From assembly GCA_030873995.1 (NCBI GenBank), contig GCA_030873995.1_4701.1: a stretch of 45,609 nucleotides of DNA, one strand, 5' to 3'. The notes beneath the pieces are model-generated. The model saw only the letters and a list, made by a program, of their open reading frames with translations. It did no database searches and was not told the origin of the DNA. Both the position numbers and the translations under genes were made by a program. Of this stretch, positions 1 through 45,609 are shown piece by piece. The stretch's first letter is position 1. Each line of letters begins with the position of its first letter. This DNA comes from a phage.

Positions 1-270
1 AAAAAATTCAAACTTGCATCTGATAAGTTAGACAACAATATGGTAACTAAGCCTAAGCACTACGAGTTCTTTGATGGCGTAGAGGCAATCACTATCATTG
101 CCCGCAGTATGACCGAGAAGCAATTCGCTGGCTATTGCATGGGTAATGCTTTGAAGTACCGTCTACGTGCAGGTAAGAAATTCAACACTGAAGAAGATCT
201 GAAGAAAGCAGACTACTACAAAGAGTTATTCCAGAAGCATCGTCACGAATGTATTGATGAGGATATTTGA
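1..270 (+). CDS. nucleotide (dNMP) kinase, T7 gp1.7-like, C-terminal part; open to window start and in frame with 45376..45609
   Basis: Block HYEFFDGVEAITIIARSMTEKQFAGYCMGNALKYRLRAGKK matches the T7 gp1.7 C-terminus as recalled; no stop between position 1 and 270 in this frame. Confidence 0.55.
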   Translation, partial: KKFKLASDKLDNNMVTKPKHYEFFDGVEAITIIARSMTEKQFAGYCMGNALKYRLRAGKKFNTEEDLKKADYYKELFQKHRHECIDEDI

Positions 271-271
271 G

Positions 272-460
272 ATGGAAGATAAACTTTATCAAGGCTATTA
301 CGGTATCTTATATAAGATAAGCCAGAATGGTTCTGTATTGGCTTCTTATGATAAAGGTGAAAGATGGCAGGTAAGTGCTTTTGGCTCTAACTTATCACGC
401 TTTAAAGAGGAAATAGCTAAAGGCGCTATGCTGGAGGTGAAGGTAGATGAATATCTTTGA
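272..460 (+). CDS. hypothetical protein (62 aa)
   Basis: ATG at 272 preceded by GAGGA; ORF track 254..460 trimmed to the RBS-supported start. Confidence 0.4.
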   Translation: MEDKLYQGYYGILYKISQNGSVLASYDKGERWQVSAFGSNLSRFKEEIAKGAMLEVKVDEYL

Positions 461-1394
461 GTTCCTAGGTCTTCCAGAAGACCACCGCAATCACCCATTC
501 ATGCTGGTGAAGCATCGCGGTGAAGTTCCTGAGAAGAAATTAACTTTTCCATGTTATGCACAGGTGAAACGAGATGGTATCTTTTCTGCTGTTGTTGTTC
601 GCGCTGATGGTGTCGTTGGCATTTTTGGTCGCACTGGTAAGAAACTGGCAAACACTGAAGGCCTCGAACAAACCTTTGCTACCTTTCCGGTTGGCGTTTA
701 TCTTGGTGAGCTTCAGTCTATGGCCGTTGATATCTACCTTGAGGCGATCTCTGGGGTTGTGAACCCTAACCGCACCGAGCCTCTTGATTTCATAGGTCAG
801 CAGATTAAAGATAACCTGTATATCGACTTCTTCGATATGTTAACTATTAAGGCATTCCACGATGGATTCACTGATGTTTCTTATCTCAAACGTTACGATG
901 CTTTACATCGCCGCATCGGCGCTCATCTTAGCGGGTACAACGCTATCCTTCCTATTACTCCTTGCCATAATGAGCGAGAAGTTGAAGCGTTTGCGCAAGA
1001 GCAGATAGACGCAGGCCGAGAGGGCGCTGTGTTTAAACTGGACTGTGATTATGAAGCAGGCCATAAAGGTTATCGTCAGACTAAAGAAGTCCGTAAGGTA
1101 ACTTATGACCTTACTTGCATTGGCTTTGAAGAAGGTAAAGGCAAGTACAAAGGTAAGGTAGCTAACCTCATTTTCAAATGGAAAGAGGGCAAGACAATCA
1201 AAGCTATGTTAGGTAAAGGGTGGACTCATGCAGATGCAGAACAGATGTTCCACGACATTAAACATGGTGGACGATTGAATGTCATTGGTAAAATCTTTGA
1301 AGTCAAAGGTCTTCAGGATTCAAGCAAGGGCAACATTCGTCTGCCCAAAGCGGGAGAATTAAGACATGACAAAGATGAACCAGATTTCTTTTGA
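447..1394 (+). CDS. ATP-dependent DNA ligase
   Basis: 315 aa; KxDG adenylation motif (VKRDG), EGAVFK and basic KGK-rich C-terminal motifs; RBS GGAGGTGA. Confidence 0.7.
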   Translation: MNIFEFLGLPEDHRNHPFMLVKHRGEVPEKKLTFPCYAQVKRDGIFSAVVVRADGVVGIFGRTGKKLANTEGLEQTFATFPVGVYLGELQSMAVDIYLEAISGVVNPNRTEPLDFIGQQIKDNLYIDFFDMLTIKAFHDGFTDVSYLKRYDALHRRIGAHLSGYNAILPITPCHNEREVEAFAQEQIDAGREGAVFKLDCDYEAGHKGYRQTKEVRKVTYDLTCIGFEEGKGKYKGKVANLIFKWKEGKTIKAMLGKGWTHADAEQMFHDIKHGGRLNVIGKIFEVKGLQDSSKGNIRLPKAGELRHDKDEPDFF

Positions 1395-1581
1395 TAGTAT
1401 GAAGGCAACTCGTGCCGTTGAGGTAGCAGAAGCTATCTTTGAAACTTTATCTTGCGGCATGGAAGTGCCGTATACTTTATTGGCTGATGCAGAAGAACTT
1501 GGTCTTTCTGTAGAAGCTATCCAAGAGAAGGTTGAAGAACTCTATGGTACAGACGAAGAAGAAACCGACGATTTCATTTGA
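1366..1581 (+). CDS. hypothetical acidic protein (71 aa), C-terminus EEETDDFI
   Basis: ORF with GGGAG upstream; acidic tail ending in an aromatic residue. Confidence 0.4.
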   Translation: MTKMNQISFDSMKATRAVEVAEAIFETLSCGMEVPYTLLADAEELGLSVEAIQEKVEELYGTDEEETDDFI

Positions 1582-1585
1582 AGGG

Positions 1586-1714
1586 ATGGAGATGCTTGAG
1601 GTGATCCTCAGGCCTTCCTCACCAAAAGTAACTAAGACTCATGAAGAGTTATTAGTGGACGAAGTTAAACGTTACATTATGGATTGTGTCAAGGCACAAC
1701 TGGTAGTTCAATGA
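1586..1714 (+). CDS. small ORF (about 42 aa) whose stop overlaps the GNAT start (ATGA)
   Basis: ATG 1586 or 1592; stop TGA 1712-1714 overlaps ATG 1711; start uncertain. Confidence 0.25.
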   Translation: MEMLEVILRPSSPKVTKTHEELLVDEVKRYIMDCVKAQLVVQ

Positions 1715-2172
1715 TACGTCAAGCATCTTTCTTAGATATACCTGAGATTATTAATCTTGGTGACAAATATGTAGAAGAGGAAGTTAATGTTGTAGCACAC
1801 CACTCCCCTTCATGGAATGCAGAACAAAGCGCAGCAAACCTGTGTGCATCTCTTGTTCGAGATGATTTATTCTTATGGGTTGCTGTAGATGAGGGTAGTA
1901 TTGTAGGGTTCCTGTGGGCTGGATATCATGACTTAGCCCCTTGGACACAAGTGCGTGTTGCATCTGATATTCTTTTCTACATCGTACCAGAGAAGCGTGG
2001 CACTCTCTTAGGAATGAGGCTTATCAAAGCCTATAAGCAATGGGCTTTTGAGAAGGAATGTGCTGAAGTGAGGCTGTCTATTGCCTCTGGTATCAATGAA
2101 GAGCGTGTCGGGCGTATGTATGAGTTGTTAGGCTTCAAGACGTTCGGCACTGTGTATAACCTAAAACTTTAA
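1711..2172 (+). CDS. GNAT-family N-acetyltransferase (putative)
   Basis: 153 aa; acetyl-CoA motif-A-like PEKRGTLLGMRLI followed by conserved aromatic/acidic residues. Confidence 0.55.
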   Translation: MIRQASFLDIPEIINLGDKYVEEEVNVVAHHSPSWNAEQSAANLCASLVRDDLFLWVAVDEGSIVGFLWAGYHDLAPWTQVRVASDILFYIVPEKRGTLLGMRLIKAYKQWAFEKECAEVRLSIASGINEERVGRMYELLGFKTFGTVYNLKL

Positions 2173-2181
2173 GGAGGCAAT

Positions 2182-2391
2182 ATGGGTGTCGTGAAGAAGG
2201 CATTTAAAGCAATCGGTCTTGCATCTGAGACGCCGAAAATTGAGGCAGCTAAGGCTCCGGCGCAACAGCTAGAGCGTCAGCCTGAGACGGAAGCAGAAGA
2301 TGTAACGCTGGGTCAAGACGATGACACCACAACCACTTCTCGTGGTAAGCGTGGGCTTGTTCGTCCGGTTGCATCTAGTTTAGGAGTATAA
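2182..2391 (+). CDS. small virion protein, T7 gp6.7-like (putative)
   Basis: 69 aa, acidic with basic C-terminal SRGKRGLVRP; AAGGAGG RBS; directly upstream of portal. Confidence 0.45.
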   Translation: MGVVKKAFKAIGLASETPKIEAAKAPAQQLERQPETEAEDVTLGQDDDTTTTSRGKRGLVRPVASSLGV

Positions 2392-2392
2392 T

Positions 2393-3943
2393 ATGAGGCA
2401 AGACACCGACCTTGAATATGGTGGCAAGCGGTCTAAGATACCTAAGCTGTGGGAGAAGTTATCAACTAAGCGTAACCCATTTATGGATAGGGCTAAACAT
2501 TATGCCAGACTCACCTTGCCTTACCTTATGAATGAGGAGGGTGATAACAATACATCTCAAAACGGATGGCAAGGTGTCGGTGCTCAAGCCACTAACCACT
2601 TAGCTAACAAGTTAGCGCAAGTTCTCTTCCCTGCTCAACGCTCTTTCTTCCGAGTTGACTTGACAGCAAAAGGAGAGAAGATATTAAACAACAGAGGTCT
2701 TAAGAAGACCAAATTAGCTACGCTATTTGCTCAAGTAGAGACTGCTGCTATGAAGCAGTTAGAGCAGCGGCAGTTCCGCCCAGCGGTGGTGGAGTGCTTC
2801 AAGCATTTGATTGTTGCTGGCAACTGTATGTTGTACAAGCCAAGCAAGGGTGCAATCAGTGCGATACCGATGCATCACTATGTAGTTAATAGAGATGCCA
2901 ATGGTGAACTGCTGGATATTATCTTACTGCAAGAGAAGGCTCTCAAGACATTCGACCCTGCAACTCGCATGGCTATTGAAGTAGGCATGAAGGGTAAGAA
3001 GTGCAAAGACAGTGATAATGTAAAACTCTACACACACGCCAAGTATGAGGGTGAAGGTTTTTGGGAATTAAAGCAATCAGCAGATGATATTCCTATTGGT
3101 GAATCTAGCAGAATCAAGGCTGATAAACTCCCATTCATCCCTCTTACTTGGAAGAGGTCGTATGGGGAAGACTGGGGTCGCCCTCTTGCAGAGGATTATT
3201 CTGGGGATTTATTCGTAATCCAATTTCTGTCCGAAGCAGTTGCACGTGGCGCTGCTTTGATGTCCGACATTAAATACCTGATTCGTCCAGGTGCTCAGAC
3301 AGATGTAGACCATTTTGTTAACTCGGGAACGGGTGAAGTAATCACTGGCGTGGAAGAGGACATCCATATTGTACAATTAGGGAAGTATGCAGATCTAACA
3401 CCAATAAGTGCGGTGCTAGAAGTTTATACCCGCCGTATCGGCGTAGTCTTTATGATGGAGACTATGACGCGACGAGATGCAGAACGTGTAACTGCTGTAG
3501 AGATACAGCGAGATGCTCTTGAGATTGAGCAGAACATGGGTGGCGTGTATTCCCTCTTTGCTACGACCATGCAGACTCCCGTGGCTATGTGGGGTTTGCT
3601 TGATGCAGGTGACTCTTTCACTAGTGACCTAGTAGACCCTGTTATCATCACAGGCATTGAAGCGTTAGGTCGCATGGCAGAGTTGGATAAGCTGGCTAAC
3701 TTTGCTCAGTATATGGCATTACCTATGAGTTGGCCTGAGCCGGTACAGGCAGCAGTAAACTGGCCGGATTATATGGATTGGGTTCGTGGTCAGATCTCTG
3801 CTGAACTTCCATTCTTAAAGTCAGAAGAGCAGATGAAGCAAGAACAAGCACAGATGGCACAAGCACAGCAAGAGCAGATGCTTAATGAAGGAGTAGCTAA
3901 AGCTGTGCCGGGTGTCATTCAACAAGAACTTAAGGAGGCGTAA
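2393..3943 (+). CDS. portal (head-to-tail connector) protein
   Basis: 516 aa, T7 gp8-like size and position before scaffold and capsid; AGGAG RBS. Confidence 0.85.
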   Translation: MRQDTDLEYGGKRSKIPKLWEKLSTKRNPFMDRAKHYARLTLPYLMNEEGDNNTSQNGWQGVGAQATNHLANKLAQVLFPAQRSFFRVDLTAKGEKILNNRGLKKTKLATLFAQVETAAMKQLEQRQFRPAVVECFKHLIVAGNCMLYKPSKGAISAIPMHHYVVNRDANGELLDIILLQEKALKTFDPATRMAIEVGMKGKKCKDSDNVKLYTHAKYEGEGFWELKQSADDIPIGESSRIKADKLPFIPLTWKRSYGEDWGRPLAEDYSGDLFVIQFLSEAVARGAALMSDIKYLIRPGAQTDVDHFVNSGTGEVITGVEEDIHIVQLGKYADLTPISAVLEVYTRRIGVVFMMETMTRRDAERVTAVEIQRDALEIEQNMGGVYSLFATTMQTPVAMWGLLDAGDSFTSDLVDPVIITGIEALGRMAELDKLANFAQYMALPMSWPEPVQAAVNWPDYMDWVRGQISAELPFLKSEEQMKQEQAQMAQAQQEQMLNEGVAKAVPGVIQQELKEA

Positions 3944-4842
3944 TGTCTTTTGAAATTATTAATGAACCTGTAAGTCAGTCTGACGTTACTGAATCTAAGG
4001 AGGCTGCTGATGTTACTACTACCGACAACGATTCTACTGTTGATTCTTCTGGCAGCGATGTACAAGCTGACACAGGCAGTACAGATGTACAAGACACCAG
4101 AGGAGAAGATGCTGGAGAAGATGGAGCAGGAGCAGAGGCTGGTGGACAGGATGATAAATCTGAGCCAAATGACACCACAGATGCGCGGTTCTTCTTCGGT
4201 GAACAAGAAGTAGAGATTGAGATTCCTGATGACGTGTCAACTGCCTTGAAAGAGAAAGGTATTGATGCTATGCAGGTTGCCAAGGAGTTGTATGGCGAAG
4301 GTGGTAAATTTGAACTCAAGGAAGAGACAAAGCAGAAGTTGTATGATGCTTTTGGTAAGTTTGCTGTAGACGCCTACCTGAATGGCCTTAAGGCCTCCAA
4401 CGAAGCATTCATGCTCAAAGCTGAGACTCAAGCAAAAGAGGCGGAGGCTGCTGATGCTCAGCGCTTCACTGATATTGCATCTGAGGTTGGAGGGGAAGAA
4501 GGCTGGTCACGCCTTGAAGAGTGGGCGCTTGAAACCCTCTCGGATGAGGAGCTAACCGCGTTTAATGCTGTTATGGCCTCTGGCAACCAGTACCTGCAAC
4601 AATATGCTGTTCGTGAACTGGAAGGTCGCCGTAAGCAAGCGCAAGGGGACGATAAGCCGTCTCTGATTGAGCCATCAGCACCTGCTAAGGCTAATGAGGA
4701 TAACGGGCCATTAACTCGCGATCAGTATGTACATGCCATTGCAACTCTGAGCCAGAAGTATGGTAATGACCGTAAGGCTATGGCAGAAGCTCAGGCGAAA
4801 CTGGATGCCCGTCGCCGTGCTGGCATGGCTCGCGGTATCTAA
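3943..4842 (+). CDS. capsid assembly scaffolding protein
   Basis: 299 aa, very acidic, low-complexity N-terminus; start overlaps portal stop (TAATG); between portal and capsid. Confidence 0.75.
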   Translation: MSFEIINEPVSQSDVTESKEAADVTTTDNDSTVDSSGSDVQADTGSTDVQDTRGEDAGEDGAGAEAGGQDDKSEPNDTTDARFFFGEQEVEIEIPDDVSTALKEKGIDAMQVAKELYGEGGKFELKEETKQKLYDAFGKFAVDAYLNGLKASNEAFMLKAETQAKEAEAADAQRFTDIASEVGGEEGWSRLEEWALETLSDEELTAFNAVMASGNQYLQQYAVRELEGRRKQAQGDDKPSLIEPSAPAKANEDNGPLTRDQYVHAIATLSQKYGNDRKAMAEAQAKLDARRRAGMARGI

Positions 4843-4848
4843 TTCAGT

Positions 4849-4871
4849 ATTTACTGGACACTATAGAAGGG
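4849..4871 (+). promoter_or_regulatory. phage-RNAP promoter ATTTACTGGACACTATAGAAGGG (capsid promoter)
   Basis: Exact consensus; +1 G at 4866; followed by 5' hairpin GGGAGAAAAGTTCTCCC (4869..4885). Confidence 0.85.
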
Positions 4872-4921
4872 AGAAAAGTTCTCCCTAGTTATCAATTTGA
4901 TTTATAAGGAGATTATAACAC

Positions 4922-6130
4922 ATGTCTACACCGAATACTCTGACTAACGTTGCTGTATCTGCATCCGGTGAGGTTGACAGTCTTCTCATTGAGAAGTTTA
5001 ATGGTAAGGTGAATGAGCAGTACCTGAAAGGTGAGAACATTCTGTCTTACTTTGATGTACAAACTGTTACTGGCACTAACACAGTGAGCAACAAATATTT
5101 GGGCGAAACTGAGTTGCAGGTGCTAGCACCGGGTCAGTCTCCTAATGCCACCCCTACTCAGGCGGATAAAAACCAGTTGGTAATTGATACCACTGTCATT
5201 GCTCGTAACACTGTGGCTCACATCCACGATGTACAAGGTGACATCGATAGCCTGAAACCAAAACTGGCTATGAACCAAGCCAAGCAACTGAAACGTCTGG
5301 AAGACCAGATGGCAATTCAGCAGATGCTGTTAGGCGGTATTGCTAACACCAAGGCCAAACGTGACAAGCCGCGTGTTAAAGGGCATGGCTTCTCTATCAA
5401 CGTTAACGTAACTGAGAGTGAAGCACTGGCTAACCCTCAGTATGTTATGGCTGCGGTAGAGTATGCTCTGGAGCAACAGCTTGAGCAGGAAGTGGACATC
5501 TCTGATGTAGCTATCATGATGCCGTGGAAGTTCTTCAATGCTCTGCGTGATGCAGACCGAATTGTAGATAAGACTTACACTATCAGCCAGTCTGGTGCAA
5601 CCATTAATGGCTTCGTTCTCTCTTCTTATAACTGCCCTGTGATCCCGTCTAACCGGTTCCCTACCTTCGCTCAGAATCAGGCTCACCACCTGTTGTCTAA
5701 TGAAGATAACGGCTATCGTTATGACCCTATCGCAGAGATGAATGGTGCAGTTGCTGTTCTGTTCACTGCCGACGCACTGCTGGTGGGTCGTACCATTGAA
5801 GTGACTGGTGACATCTTCTATGAGAAGAAAGAGAAGACTTATTACATTGACACCTTCATGGCTGAGGGTGCAATCCCTGACCGTTGGGAAGCAGTGTCTG
5901 TAGTCACTACTAAGCGTAATGGTACTACTGGTGTCGCAGATGGAGAAGGCACAGACCACGCCACTGTTCTGTCCCGTGCGCAGCGTAAGGCTGTATATGT
6001 CAAGACCGCAGGTGCTGCGGCTGCATTCTCTGCTGCACCAGCAGGTATCCAAGCGGAAGACCTTGTAGCGGCGGTACGTGCTGTAATGGCAAATGACATC
6101 AAGCCGACTGCACTGAAACCTACTGAGTAA
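4922..6130 (+). CDS. major capsid protein
   Basis: 402 aa; own phage promoter with 5' hairpin upstream, strong hairpin terminator downstream; T7 gp10 position. Confidence 0.85.
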   Translation: MSTPNTLTNVAVSASGEVDSLLIEKFNGKVNEQYLKGENILSYFDVQTVTGTNTVSNKYLGETELQVLAPGQSPNATPTQADKNQLVIDTTVIARNTVAHIHDVQGDIDSLKPKLAMNQAKQLKRLEDQMAIQQMLLGGIANTKAKRDKPRVKGHGFSINVNVTESEALANPQYVMAAVEYALEQQLEQEVDISDVAIMMPWKFFNALRDADRIVDKTYTISQSGATINGFVLSSYNCPVIPSNRFPTFAQNQAHHLLSNEDNGYRYDPIAEMNGAVAVLFTADALLVGRTIEVTGDIFYEKKEKTYYIDTFMAEGAIPDRWEAVSVVTTKRNGTTGVADGEGTDHATVLSRAQRKAVYVKTAGAAAAFSAAPAGIQAEDLVAAVRAVMANDIKPTALKPTE

Positions 6131-6139
6131 TAACCTATG

Positions 6140-6175
6140 CCCTATCTACCTTGCGTAGGTAGGGTTCTTTTGTTT
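6140..6175 (+). terminator. late hairpin terminator after the capsid gene
   Basis: 10-bp stem CCCTATCTAC/GTAGGTAGGG, 5-nt loop, then TTCTTTTGTTT. Confidence 0.75.
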
Positions 6176-6185
6176 AGGAGGATTC

Positions 6186-6926
6186 ATGCCTTTAATTCAA
6201 AATACAAGTGATGTTGGACGTATCATGGCTGAGGCTTCCTTCAATATCATTGATAGCAAGCTGGAAGCAGTTAACCTGTGTATGCGAGCTATTGGTCGTG
6301 AGGGTGTGGATTCCCTTGACTCTGGCGACTTAGATGCTGAAGATGCTAACAAGATTATTGATATTGTCTCACAACGTTTCCAATACAATAAGGGCGGTGG
6401 TTGGTGGTTTAACAGAGAACCTAACTGGTTACTTAAACCTGACACAAATGGTGAAGTGAACATGCCAAACAATTGCCTTGCTGTTCTCCAATGCTATGCT
6501 CTGGGTGAACGTAAAGTCCCTATGACTATGCGCGCAGGTAAACTGTACTCTGTTTGGAATCACACTTTCGACATGTCAAAGTATGTGAATCAGGATGGGC
6601 GTATTAGGTTGACTTTGGTAACATTGCTGCCTTTTGAGCATCTACCTGCAAGCGTAATGCAAGCCATTGCCTATCAGGCTGCCGTAGAGTTTATTGTGTC
6701 TAAAGATGCAGATAAGACTAAACTACAAGCACACCAGCAGATTGCAGCACAATTGATGATTGATGTTCAGTCAGAGCAGTCTTCTCAGAAGAGACTTAAT
6801 ATACTTGTACATAACCCCACTCAGCGCAACTTTGGCATTATGGCAGGTGGCTCTCAGAATGTACCAGCGTTCTCCTATTCACCTTATGACACTTACCCTG
6901 TAAGGCCGTGGGAGGTTGATAGATAA
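6186..6926 (+). CDS. tail tubular protein A (gp11-like)
   Basis: N-terminal block IGREGVDSLDSGDLDAEDANKII...GGGWWFN resembles the T7 gp11 N-terminus as recalled. Confidence 0.75.
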   Translation: MPLIQNTSDVGRIMAEASFNIIDSKLEAVNLCMRAIGREGVDSLDSGDLDAEDANKIIDIVSQRFQYNKGGGWWFNREPNWLLKPDTNGEVNMPNNCLAVLQCYALGERKVPMTMRAGKLYSVWNHTFDMSKYVNQDGRIRLTLVTLLPFEHLPASVMQAIAYQAAVEFIVSKDADKTKLQAHQQIAAQLMIDVQSEQSSQKRLNILVHNPTQRNFGIMAGGSQNVPAFSYSPYDTYPVRPWEVDR

Positions 6927-20805: not shown

Positions 20806-21087
20806 ATGGCTAATGATTATAGTGATCAACCTTTAACTGGTCGATATGACCGTAAGCAGATTACACCGACCAGTGAGGCATTAATGCTCCCTGTTGTTAC
20901 AGAGGAGTCTATTACGAAGAAAGCCAATGTTATCAATGATGCAACCAAATCTGGTAAACAGAAAGCAGCAATGGTATGTCGTCCTGTAGGTGGCACTCTT
21001 GAGGTTGCCATTGCTACTGGTAGCAAAGAGGATGCAGATTGGTTGTCTGTTAAAATGGACAGCGTTGGTCTTATTACACCGGCTTAA
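20806..21087 (+). CDS. hypothetical protein, tandem paralog A
   Basis: 93 aa; shares SGKQK(A/G)AMV...(V/I)AIA(T/R)GS...D.W with 21105..21392; AAGGAG RBS. Confidence 0.5.
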   Translation: MANDYSDQPLTGRYDRKQITPTSEALMLPVVTEESITKKANVINDATKSGKQKAAMVCRPVGGTLEVAIATGSKEDADWLSVKMDSVGLITPA

Positions 21088-21104: not shown

Positions 21105-21392
21105 ATGTCTAAGTATGGCGATGCAGGTACGACTACTGGTCAGGTTTTTCGTGTAAAAGCAGTACAAACTATTGCAACTGCAATTCCTATGCCTATCGTG
21201 GCAGAAGCTGACCTTAAAAAGAAAGATCATCCAATTAATATTGAACACCTATCTGGTAAGCAGAAAGGTGCTATGGTGGTTGTAGATAAAGGAGATAGCC
21301 TTTATATTGCTATTGCGCGTGGCTCTGCACCAACTGACAAGTGGGATGCAACTACTATGGAGGTGACACCTGTCACTCCAGAAGGGGATTAA
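21105..21392 (+). CDS. hypothetical protein, tandem paralog B
   Basis: 95 aa, paralog of 20806..21087; AAAGGAG RBS. Confidence 0.5.
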   Translation: MSKYGDAGTTTGQVFRVKAVQTIATAIPMPIVAEADLKKKDHPINIEHLSGKQKGAMVVVDKGDSLYIAIARGSAPTDKWDATTMEVTPVTPEGD

Positions 21393-28557: not shown

Positions 28558-28653
28558 TTAGATGGTAGCTTCTTAGTCTGGATAGGTTAAACCTAGGGTA
28601 TTCTTTTGAGTACCCTATAATGTAACCTAACTAACTAAATGAGGATTAATAAC

Positions 28654-29013
28654 ATGGCTATGTCTAATATGACTTACTCTCAGGTTTACAACAACGCTCA
28701 TGCTGCATTAGTTGAACGTATCTGGAATGATGCTATTGATTGTATTGATAACGCACATGATGCAATCCATGATGTGGCGGATAGTGCTGTACCAATCTAT
28801 TATGCTGACATCTTCTCCGTGATGGCGAGTGAAGGAATTGATCATTTCTTCGAAGACTCCGGCCTGATGCCAGACACTAAGGATGTAACGGTAGTATTGC
28901 AAGCCCGTATCTATGAGCAACTCACAATTGATCTATGGGAACGTGTTCAGTATATGATTGTTGAATACATCAACTCCGCCGAATATTTAGAAGAAGAAGA
29001 AGAGGAAGAATAA
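28654..29013 (+). CDS. ocr: Ocr (T7 gp0.3) DNA-mimic anti-restriction protein
   Basis: MAMSNMTY...[49 protein letters not shown] closely matches T7 Ocr as recalled; poly-Glu tail; GAGGA RBS. Confidence 0.9.
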
Positions 29014-29014
29014 G

Positions 29015-29128
29015 ATGGAAAAGCTATACAACTTTATCTTTTCAGACGGTGTAACCCTGAAGTGTTCCCTACGATTCGCACAAATTCGTGAGGAAGTACT
29101 AGGCACTACATACAAACTATTTAGCTGA
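29015..29128 (+). CDS. small ORF (37 aa) directly after ocr
   Basis: ATG 2 nt after the ocr stop; no homology recognised. Confidence 0.35.
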   Translation: MEKLYNFIFSDGVTLKCSLRFAQIREEVLGTTYKLFS

Positions 29129-44275: not shown

Positions 44276-45275
44276 ACTTCGTAGCCTTTATAAAGACTCC
44301 GAGGTGCTTGATGCAATCGAGCAAGCTACCGACGAGAAAGGTAATGTTAACTATAATGAGATGGCGAAGATCCTATCTAGCCACCCTGTGGGTAAGAAGA
44401 TCACCCGTCAACTTGCTCGGTATTGGCATGGTCAATTTAAGAAGACCAAGAAGAATGGCGATTACTACCAGACTCTTCTGCAAGAGGATAAGCGTATCAA
44501 AGAAGAGCGTAAGCTCAGGACTCCTGACCGCTACGAGGATTTGGCTATTGTACCATTGCCTGACTCGCCTCATCGAAGTGTACTGGTAATCCCTGATACT
44601 CATGCACCTTATGAGCACCCAGATACCCTAGAGTTCCTTGCAGCCGTGGCGGCACGTTACCGTCCAGACACAGTGGTACACCTAGGAGATGAGGCAGACA
44701 AACATGCCCTGTCATTCCACGATTCGGACCCAAATCTGGATAGTGCTGGCATGGAGCTAGAGAAGGCTCGTGTCTTCATGCACAAGTTGCACAAGATGTT
44801 CCCTGTGATGCGCCTGTGTCATTCTAATCACGGCTCTATGCACTTCCGTAAGGCAAGCGCCAAGGGTATTCCAGTGCAATATCTTCGCACCTACCGTGAA
44901 GTCTTTTTCCCAAATGGAGGTGGCGACCAGTGGGATTGGCAGCATACACATGTTCTTGAGTTGCCGAATGGTGAACAAGTGGCATTCAAGCATCAACCTG
45001 CTGGCTCTGTCCTAGCAGATGCAGCGCATGAGCGTATGAACCTTGTGTGTGGTCACTTGCACGGTAAGATGTCTGTGGAGTACGCACGTAATACACATGA
45101 ACAGTATTGGGCTGTGCAAGGTGGCTGCTTAATTGATGAGTCATCCCGTGCATTTGCCTATGGGCGTGAGTCTAAATACAAGCCAGCATTAGGTTGTGTG
45201 GTTATTCTGGAGGGTGTACCTCATATTGTCCCGATGCAAACCAATAGCGACAACCGTTGGATTGGCAAGATTTAG
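44268..45275 (+). CDS. calcineurin-like metallophosphoesterase with about 100-aa N-terminal extension
   Basis: Motifs IPDTH, GDEAD, SNHG, GHLHG; AAGGAGG RBS 7 nt before GTG 44268. Confidence 0.65.
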   Translation: MAKLRSLYKDSEVLDAIEQATDEKGNVNYNEMAKILSSHPVGKKITRQLARYWHGQFKKTKKNGDYYQTLLQEDKRIKEERKLRTPDRYEDLAIVPLPDSPHRSVLVIPDTHAPYEHPDTLEFLAAVAARYRPDTVVHLGDEADKHALSFHDSDPNLDSAGMELEKARVFMHKLHKMFPVMRLCHSNHGSMHFRKASAKGIPVQYLRTYREVFFPNGGGDQWDWQHTHVLELPNGEQVAFKHQPAGSVLADAAHERMNLVCGHLHGKMSVEYARNTHEQYWAVQGGCLIDESSRAFAYGRESKYKPALGCVVILEGVPHIVPMQTNSDNRWIGKI

Positions 45276-45292
45276 TTGACACTATAGAACAA
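45270..45292 (+). promoter_or_regulatory. phage-RNAP promoter, SP6-like variant
   Basis: ATTTAGTTGACACTATAGAACAA; differs from the local consensus at -12 and -10. Confidence 0.6.
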
Positions 45293-45375
45293 AGGGCTAG
45301 GTAAGACTTTATCGGCTGGCGTATCCAAATGATATTGCACTAGCCCTTGATTGTATAGTGAATGGAGGATTCAAT

Positions 45376-45609
45376 ATGTCACACTATGAATGTAAGAAGT
45401 GTCATAAGCGTTATGATTACTGTACTTGTGGTCAAGAGAAAACATCTTTTAAAGTTGGAGACAAGGTATTTCGTAATGAAAAAGATTCGATTCCTTGGAA
45501 TCAATACTGCAAAGAAGCTGGTATTGACCCTGATAGCCCTGTAACCATAGATGATATTGATGGCATTAACTTGTGCTTTCGTGAGGTGAGGGGTACAGGT
45601 TGGGATTCC
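45376..45609 (+). CDS. nucleotide kinase gp1.7-like, N-terminal Cys-rich part; runs off the window end in frame with 1..270
   Basis: GGAGG RBS; Cys-rich N-terminus (CKKCH...CTCG); no stop before the window end; promoter 45270 upstream. Confidence 0.5.
   Translation, partial: MSHYECKKCHKRYDYCTCGQEKTSFKVGDKVFRNEKDSIPWNQYCKEAGIDPDSPVTIDDIDGINLCFREVRGTGWDS

Follow-up and report, generated by a model that had tools for sequence, protein, structure and literature searches.

In the type II toxin-antitoxin (TA) loci TacAT, AtaRT, KacAT and ItaRT, a small gene encoding a DUF1778/ribbon-helix-helix (RHH) antitoxin of ~90 amino acids (aa) lies upstream of, and overlaps, a gene for a GNAT-type acetyltransferase of ~150–175 aa. 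A similar order is found in the phiKMV-like phage LUZ19, where a small gene (gp27) overlaps the GNAT gene gp28 by one base and is followed by the genes for the small virion protein gp29, the portal and the scaffold. The gp28 protein, called Rac, is a predicted GNAT that harms growth when expressed alone, leads to cleavage of the RNA polymerase α subunit and to increased protein acetylation in the host, and the effect is lost when residues of its predicted acetyl-CoA pocket are replaced by alanine (PMC7552054). Here, we compare with these systems a gene pair in the phage contig GCA_030873995.1_4701.1 (NCBI GenBank assembly GCA_030873995.1), a DNA of 45,609 nucleotides (nt) called the window in the following. 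A previous, sequence-only reading of the window had noted at positions 1586–2172 a GNAT gene whose start overlaps the stop of a small open reading frame (ORF), and had likened the two to GNAT TA pairs, or alternatively to a phage anti-defence or protein-modifying acetyltransferase.

We conclude with high confidence that the two ORFs are orthologues of SP6 genes 27 and 28 and make up a conserved cassette of two genes that closes the DNA-metabolism block of SP6/K1E-like podoviruses, not a TA module. In SP6 (and for genes 26 and 27 of K1-5), the same orthologues are joined by the same ATGA junction, with the ligase gene upstream and a gp7.3-like gene and the portal gene downstream; there is no substantive difference, and the window adds one more member. 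The window itself is an SP6/K1E-like (Vectrevirus) phage genome of ~45.6 kb, belonging to the Molineuxvirinae within the Autographiviridae. The region around the GNAT gene matches 80 phage records, all of them from SP6/K1E-like podoviruses (Vectrevirus and relatives) and 75 of them aligning over most of the query, with ~92% DNA identity to the nearest deposited genome across this region. Because a nucleotide-kinase reading frame runs uninterrupted from the window end (45300–45609) into the window start (1–270), the window represents a circularly permuted whole phage genome; no terminal repeat was found between its ends. The cassette consists of the following elements:

1527–1538, plus strand: purine-rich Shine-Dalgarno-like stretch, GAAGGTTGAAGA, before ATG 1544 (comparison of the upstream 20-mers)
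1544–1714, plus strand: small conserved gene, 56 aa, orthologue of SP6 gene 27 and K1-5 gene 26 (PHROG 6507, E-value 2.9e-25)
1702–1706, plus strand: GGTAG, a weak Shine-Dalgarno-like element for the GNAT gene within the end of the small gene (junction sequences)
1711–1714, plus strand: ATGA overlap of the small-gene stop and the GNAT start (sequence)
1711–2172, plus strand: GNAT N-acetyltransferase, 153 aa, orthologue of SP6 gene 28 and K1-5 gene 27 (Pfam and PHROG 1249)

The presence of a 153-aa GNAT between ligase and portal, as originally proposed, was confirmed by profile searches. The protein scored above the gathering cut-offs for Pfam Acetyltransf_1 (35.4 versus 20.7 bits, E-value 1.5e-8) and Acetyltransf_7 (29.7 versus 27 bits) and matched PHROG 1249, annotated as acetyltransferase, end to end (residues 1–151, E-value 1.8e-51). 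It shows the α/β fold of the superfamily, with a mixed sheet and the β4-α3 acetyl-CoA site, in a minimal single domain without a protein-recognition extension; in longer relatives the extra domains are further GNAT domains only and give no fusion clue to function. In the family alignment, motif A lies near R96-G97...G101, with R96-G97 invariant and G/A101 conserved, although the central glycine of the canonical motif (R/Q-x-x-G-x-G/A) is replaced by leucine. Motif B reads GRMY137ELLGF, with Y137 kept in at least 90% of the sequences, and D86 and E119 are family-invariant alongside R96-G97. This conservation suggests catalytic roles for the R96-G97 loop and Y137, and the enzyme looks catalytically competent. 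As M1, R3, A5 and D9 are invariant across the family, ATG 1711 is the start codon. With an isoelectric point (pI) of 5.2 and a net charge of −5, the protein is acidic, the family having a median pI of 6.4; a cationic substrate would match this charge. All NCBIfam matches fell far below their cut-offs, with AAC(6'), ArsN1 and MshD as near-misses, and the protein did not group with housekeeping acetyltransferases.

For the upstream ORF, the sequence-only reading had assumed ~40 aa, starting at 1586 or 1592. The start is most likely ATG 1544 instead, yielding a protein of 56 aa, MVQTKKKPTISFEGMEMLEVILRPSSPKVTKTHEELLVDEVKRYIMDCVKAQLVVQ. This position is favoured because a Shine-Dalgarno sequence is conserved before it across genera (GGAGGA or GAGG, 5–8 nt before the equivalent start in SP6 and in Proteus, Klebsiella and Erwinia phages) and because Proteus phages lack a methionine at the equivalents of 1586 and 1592, where their sequence reads GYDLLEK. 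The start position equivalent to 1544 is unchanged even where the start codon is GTG or TTG, and the in-frame peptide before ATG 1586, M-x-x-T-K-K-K-P-T-I-S-F-E-G, is kept in Salmonella, Klebsiella, Proteus and Lelliottia phages; a peptide MVQTKKKPTISFEGM would mark the 56-aa form. In public assemblies, gene callers give 56–58 aa for the small protein, and deposited starts disagree, with 42 aa in the records of K1E and a Raoultella phage and 56–57 aa in those of LL11 and SP6. The stretch at 1527–1538 is a degenerate Shine-Dalgarno sequence in the window, compared with GGAGGA at this place in SP6, Proteus and some Klebsiella and Escherichia relatives, and GAAGGG is found 6 nt before ATG 1592. 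For these two reasons, a shorter isoform may be produced from the internal ATG.

Every sign points to translation of the small ORF. In 11 distinct Vectrevirus sequences, the ratio of nonsynonymous to synonymous polymorphism (pN/pS), computed on the part of the ORF without overlap with the preceding gene, was 0.10 in frame versus 2.3 and 2.6 in the other frames. These values indicate purifying selection and, together with the PHROG 6507 match, a real gene. The AlphaFold2 model of the 56-aa protein (pLDDT 90.4) is a helical hairpin with short terminal strands: a two-residue strand, a helix at residues 12–21, an 11-residue proline-rich loop, a helix at 33–52 and a short C-terminal strand that appears positioned in the model to pair with the N-terminal one. 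The strand-helix-helix pattern first ascribed to this ORF holds loosely, with the long proline-rich loop and the short final strand as additions from the model.

Both genes are widely distributed among related phages. The GNAT is 71.9% identical to the SP6 gene 28 product, annotated as acetyltransferase, and 85–97% identical to Vectrevirus proteins; the small protein is 58% identical to the product of SP6 gene 27. Using tblastn, we found the GNAT in 248 phage records, including SP6 and phages of Klebsiella, Proteus, Erwinia, Vibrio, Pseudomonas syringae, Aeromonas, Marinomonas and Rhizobium, and the small ORF in 142 records. Counted by genus, the numbers of records containing each of the two genes nearly coincide (18/18 for Vectrevirus, 15/15 for Salmonella, 13/13 for Proteus and 58/61 for Escherichia). 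An exhaustive profile search with the GNAT gave 1,262 cluster representatives at an E-value of at most 1e-10, the best 150 listed being mostly ~150 aa long. The order ligase, small ORFs, GNAT, a gene of ~60–70 aa and portal is conserved in Vectrevirus, Zindervirus, Acadevirus and Eracentumvirus, and the same order from ligase to portal occurs in Colwellvirinae phages of Vibrio, Pseudomonas syringae, Aeromonas and Marinomonas.

A profile of the small ORF matched the ORF directly before the GNAT gene in Erwinia, Vibrio and Pseudomonas syringae phages with E-values of 1e-22 to 1e-24, which are self-matches since these sequences had been used to build the profile, and in Aeromonas phage HJG with 3e-19, an independent match. 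Weak matches were obtained in Pantoea phage Nufs112 (0.009) and Marinomonas phage CB5A (0.03), each being the sole reported match in its locus. In the Erwinia, Vibrio and Pseudomonas syringae phages, the ORF ending at the GNAT start also carries the motif E-x-[YF]-[DE]-x-L ... P-S/T ... L-x-W/A-[DN] ... K-R-x-[IL]. Because profile and motif recover an ORF before such distant GNATs, the sequences indicate that the pair is conserved through the Molineuxvirinae and Colwellvirinae, over a GNAT divergence to ~35% identity. The small gene is unannotated in Pseudomonas phage Nerthus (locus L009, 1301–1495; E-value 4.5e-23, with its sequence in the profile) and in Aeromonas phage HJG (locus L054, 1268–1501; 3e-19).

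The ATGA overlap between the two genes, first noted by the sequence-only reading, is present at 1711–1714. In most of ~45 related loci the junction is likewise ATGA, in Proteus phages the overlap is a single base, and a few annotated loci (phiEa100, CB5A and Nufs112) show longer overlaps or a one-base gap; at the equivalent of 1702–1706, relatives carry GGTGG or AGGTG. Overlaps joining ORFs of at least 40 codons are frequent in the window (at least seven one-base stop/start overlaps, one ATGA and one GTGA), and LL11, an annotated relative, has overlaps at about 20 of its 54 gene junctions, three of them ATGA and seven of one base. Genes in such genomes are as a rule tightly packed and probably translationally coupled, and the overlap is not distinctive.

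This junction was the main reason for the comparison with TA loci, which did not hold up: the small protein shows no RHH/DUF1778 similarity, the GNAT shows no relation to the tRNA-acetylating toxins beyond the superfamily, and the analogy rests only on gene order and on an overlap that is generic in this genome. Searching Pfam, we found no DUF1778 or RHH domain in the 42-aa form or the 56-aa form of the small protein or, at E-values up to 10, in 14 diverse homologues, and neither a profile search of all Protein Data Bank (PDB) sequences nor the fold revealed any such similarity. With its 56 aa and 11-residue proline-rich loop between the helices, the small protein is unlike RHH proteins and differs from the ~90-aa antitoxins. 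TacT, AtaT, KacT and ItaT were absent both from the 42 PDB chains reached by the GNAT profile (E-values up to 10) and from the top 50–60 structural matches of the GNAT, which is related to these toxins only at the superfamily level. GNAT toxins that bind tRNA need a basic surface, whereas the window protein is acidic. The defence and TA models of PADLOC gave nothing.

The genomic residence of the family also differs from that of TA loci, with the pair being borne by lytic podoviruses. We found no GNAT match in 5,426 complete Escherichia coli genomes, only matches of 24–30% identity on plasmids, and three weak, partial matches in the representative genomes of 185,579 species. Among 41 close GNAT homologues, the long contigs are all phage-size (~44–46 kb) and the remainder are short fragments. 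As far as these searches reach, the GNAT family is restricted to phages, with no chromosomal or plasmid homologues in TA-like settings and no residence on chromosomes, plasmids or prophages as in GNAT/RHH systems. What is shared with those systems, a small overlapping upstream gene, is not specific to them.

By position, the window GNAT is the equivalent of Rac, but it is not a member of the Rac family. Both are GNATs of ~150 aa in the same slot, preceded by a small overlapping ORF and followed by genes for a small virion protein and the portal, in a block that precedes the structural genes. Rac-family GNATs directly precede the gp7.3-like gene in T7-like Ghunavirus phages (order 6.5, 6.7, GNAT, 7.3, 8), and Rac relatives hold the same slot in Achromobacter and Pantoea phages. 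In Rhizobium phage Paso (locus L057, 1256–1941), whose gene order is phiKMV-like, an RNA polymerase gene is directly followed by a small ORF with a weak match to PHROG 6575 (E-value 3.9e-4), the family of LUZ19 gp27, which overlaps by ATGA a GNAT gene matching PHROG 1249 (1.2e-24). Judged by these matches, Paso stands between the SP6-like and the phiKMV-like form of the slot.

The two proteins differ in that Rac belongs to PHROG 3986 and has a divergent C-terminal half, and in that the host of the window phage is an enterobacterium; the window GNAT showed no match to PHROG 3986. Beyond its own PHROG, the sole match of Rac among PHROGs is PHROG 1249 (E-value 4.9e-4), and an hhalign comparison of the two GNAT families gave 84% probability and an E-value of 7e-6 over 82 core columns. 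The window GNAT is possibly a distant orthologue of Rac. We also compared the small protein with LUZ19 gp27 and rejected homology as unproven: hhalign gave 1.6% probability and the profile found no significant gp27-type ORF; a MAFFT alignment showed a suggestive shared register of strand, helix, loop and helix. In T7, the slot that the Rac-family GNAT occupies in Ghunavirus holds gene 7 (133 aa, 'host range'; locus L060, 1631–2032). The idea that it is a degenerate GNAT was rejected, as T7 gp7 matches only its own PHROG 2746 and gives no GNAT signal.

The surroundings of the cassette define when it is likely expressed. The neighbouring genes and the nearest promoters are:

447–1394, plus strand: ATP-dependent DNA ligase (Pfam DNA_ligase_A_M and DNA_ligase_OB_2)
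1366–1581, plus strand: very acidic ORF of 71 aa, orthologue of SP6 gene 26 (PHROG 5860, E-value 1.5e-41)
2182–2391, plus strand: T7 gp7.3-like protein, 69 aa, directly 3' of the GNAT gene (PHROG 9033, E-value 4.9e-16; PHROG 1320, E-value 3.7e-9)
2393–3943, plus strand: portal, the head-to-tail connector (Pfam Head-tail_con, E-value 4.8e-91)
4849–4869, plus strand: next SP6-type promoter downstream, before the major capsid gene (consensus match)
45270–45290, plus strand: nearest upstream SP6-type promoter match, preceding position 1 by circular permutation (consensus match)

T7 gp7.3 itself is a member of PHROG 1320, and the 69-aa protein is classed like it as a small virion, host-range and adsorption protein. 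The SP6-type promoter consensus has eight matches in the window versus zero expected, none of them between 45270 and 4849, and the promoters at these two positions bracket the ligase, the small gene, the GNAT, the portal and the scaffold. From the promoter stretch onward, no strong terminator match was found before 6139–6165, after the capsid gene. As neither a promoter match nor a strong terminator match lies between the cassette and the genes for ligase, portal and scaffold, the phage RNA polymerase probably transcribes all of them together in the middle to late phase of infection.

Within positions 1–6500 of the window, we counted 14 terminator-like hairpins versus 4.6 ± 1.9 expected. The strongest, at 6139–6165, lies directly 3' of the major capsid gene, as does the main terminator in T7-like phages, and two weaker ones are located at 1453–1472, in ORF 1366–1581, and at 1847–1864, in the GNAT gene. 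ORF 1366–1581 has a pI of 4.05 and a net charge of −14.5, and its PHROG 5860 is without annotated function. It overlaps the 3' end of the ligase gene by 29 nt and the start of the small gene by 38 nt, and in the latter overlap Vectrevirus genomes hardly vary in either frame. The acidic C-terminus of the 71-aa protein, ...DEEETDDFI, might speculatively be seen as recalling the acidic aromatic C-terminal tails of T7 gp2.5 and gp4, or a DNA mimic.

With a probability of roughly 0.35–0.4, we propose that the GNAT N-acetylates a positively charged host target during host takeover, in analogy to Rac, and that the small protein is its co-produced partner. The 56-aa protein would be translated from ATG 1544, and ribosomes ending the small gene at TGA 1712–1714 would be positioned to start the GNAT at ATG 1711, such that both proteins would probably be made together by translational coupling. 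The GNAT would then use host acetyl-CoA to acetylate a cationic host target, most likely lysines or N-termini of proteins, a takeover step of the same kind as that of Rac in phiKMV-like phages. The helical-hairpin protein might target, regulate or stabilise the enzyme, a partner role that we infer purely from the conserved linkage. Among ten early and middle accessory proteins of the phage, none matched PHROGs of host RNA-polymerase inhibitors or protein kinases, which leaves room for a shut-off function that has escaped recognition and lends slight support to the proposal. In more general terms, a phage protein-modifying or anti-defence acetyltransferase, the alternative offered by the sequence-only reading, is supported and remains the most plausible class of function.

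Several points weigh against a Rac-like role. A specific kinship with Rac was considered and rejected: BLASTP of the window GNAT against Rac gave nothing, Rac matches the generic Pfam family Acetyltransf_1 about as well as PHROG 1249, and taken together the BLASTP, PHROG, hhalign and Pfam comparisons show similarity only at the superfamily level. Even within the Krylovirinae the Rac phenotype is genus-specific, as the LKA1 homologue in the same position causes no α-subunit cleavage (PMC7552054). GNATs of PHROG 1249 in roseophage SIO1 and Yersinia phage YeP4 directly follow a tail gene and come without the small ORF. As conserved synteny is the default in the Autographiviridae, the linkage of the small gene and the GNAT says little about a partnership. 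Our literature search found no study on the function of SP6 gene 28 or of any orthologue. Moreover, the nearest solved relatives reached by the GNAT profile are small-molecule amine acetyltransferases, which makes a small-molecule substrate a serious alternative.

On this main alternative, which we regard as improbable but the strongest of the competing explanations, the enzyme would acetylate a polyamine, another cationic metabolite or an antibiotic, and might tune the levels of free polyamines while DNA is replicated and packaged, or inactivate an inhibitory amine. It is consistent with the best profile matches among solved structures, which are the polyamine acetyltransferase DpA (E-value 3.2e-5), the thialysine/diamine acetyltransferase SSAT2, AAC(6') and phosphinothricin acetyltransferases, with the NCBIfam near-misses, with the acidic protein and its conserved Trp, Asp and Glu residues, and with the minimal single domain. 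These similarities are weak, however: identities to DpA (8a9o), SSAT2 (2bei), AAC(6')-Iy (1s3z) and PAT/ArsN (5jtf) are 13–25%, the substrate-binding residues are not transferable, and structure searches rank the protein N-terminal acetyltransferases Naa60, Ard1 and Naa30 as well as Hpa2 equally high. Furthermore, no metabolic genes adjoin the GNAT gene, and Rac, the sole studied phage GNAT in this slot, acts via protein acetylation (PMC7552054).

Less probable still is a modifier of virion or assembly proteins, be it the gp7.3-like, portal, scaffold or internal proteins, or a GNAT that is itself packaged. In four lineages of the Autographiviridae, the gene invariably lies directly upstream of those for the gp7.3-like protein and the portal, and it appears to be co-transcribed with head genes. 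In SIO1 and YeP4, which are podoviruses outside the Autographiviridae, the PHROG 1249 GNAT lies within the tail-gene block, and a loosely comparable, weakly annotated acetyltransferase ORF is likewise placed in Alteromonas phage ZP6. Gene position in T7-like genomes, however, reflects expression timing more than function, Rac expressed alone acts on host proteins (PMC7552054), and a literature search aimed at virion proteomes found no report naming the GNAT.

The family is phage-restricted and fast-diverging (25–35% identity between phage subfamilies), which would also fit an anti-defence enzyme that acetylates and inactivates a host immune protein. There is precedent in AcrVA5, a GNAT-fold anti-CRISPR that inactivates Cas12a by acetylation. 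We consider this doubtful, and slightly more so than a virion-directed role, given that the gene is core-like and fixed in position across several subfamilies and many host genera, whereas anti-defence genes are more often found in variable early accessory regions, that its mid-to-late expression would come late for such a function, and that no PADLOC-related matches were obtained. The early region of the window carries an Ocr-like anti-restriction gene at 28639–29013 on the plus strand (PHROG 2568, E-value 1.1e-46), and a weaker SP6-type promoter match follows it shortly at 29119.

Finally, that the GNAT is a growth-arresting toxin, for instance one acetylating aminoacyl-tRNA, with the small protein as the antitoxin of an addiction module or timer, is very improbable: there is a resemblance to type II GNAT TA loci in the leading small gene, the ATGA junction and the conserved pairing, and Rac, the counterpart of the GNAT by position, is toxic to Pseudomonas aeruginosa when produced on its own (PMC7552054), but to the sequence, fold, charge and residence differences described above are added the strictly lytic nature of the phage, in which addiction has no obvious role, and the existence of related GNATs without the small gene in SIO1 and YeP4.

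Elsewhere in the window, two ORFs of ~93–95 aa each lie side by side at 20806–21087 and 21105–21392 on the plus strand. In the records of relatives (LL11 gp47 and gp48, UAB_Phi78 gp42) they are labelled 'acetyl-CoA acetyltransferase' and a probable duplication. The product name looks unfounded, since neither ORF has a Pfam match at E-values up to 1.

The gene pair as such is already known, and many deposited phage genomes list the GNAT as an acetyltransferase. In public records, however, the start of the small gene is inconsistent, and the cross-genus evidence favours the 56-aa form; the pair is also conserved far deeper than the annotation implies, with the small gene left unannotated in, for example, Nerthus and HJG. 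It is conceivable, though rather unlikely, that the small protein and the GNAT constitute a two-subunit host-takeover enzyme of the Molineuxvirinae and Colwellvirinae that is evolutionarily continuous with gp27/Rac, and hence an ancient Autographiviridae module. If true, this module would take control of the host through protein acetylation, for instance by shutting down host transcription in phages without functions of the T7 gp2 or gp0.7 type, and the choice or timing of its targets would be up to the small subunit. That the GNAT shares its slot with Rac provides a concrete hypothesis for a widespread enzyme in tractable phages of Escherichia coli and Salmonella (K1-5, K1E and SP6), and many of these phages are under development for therapy.

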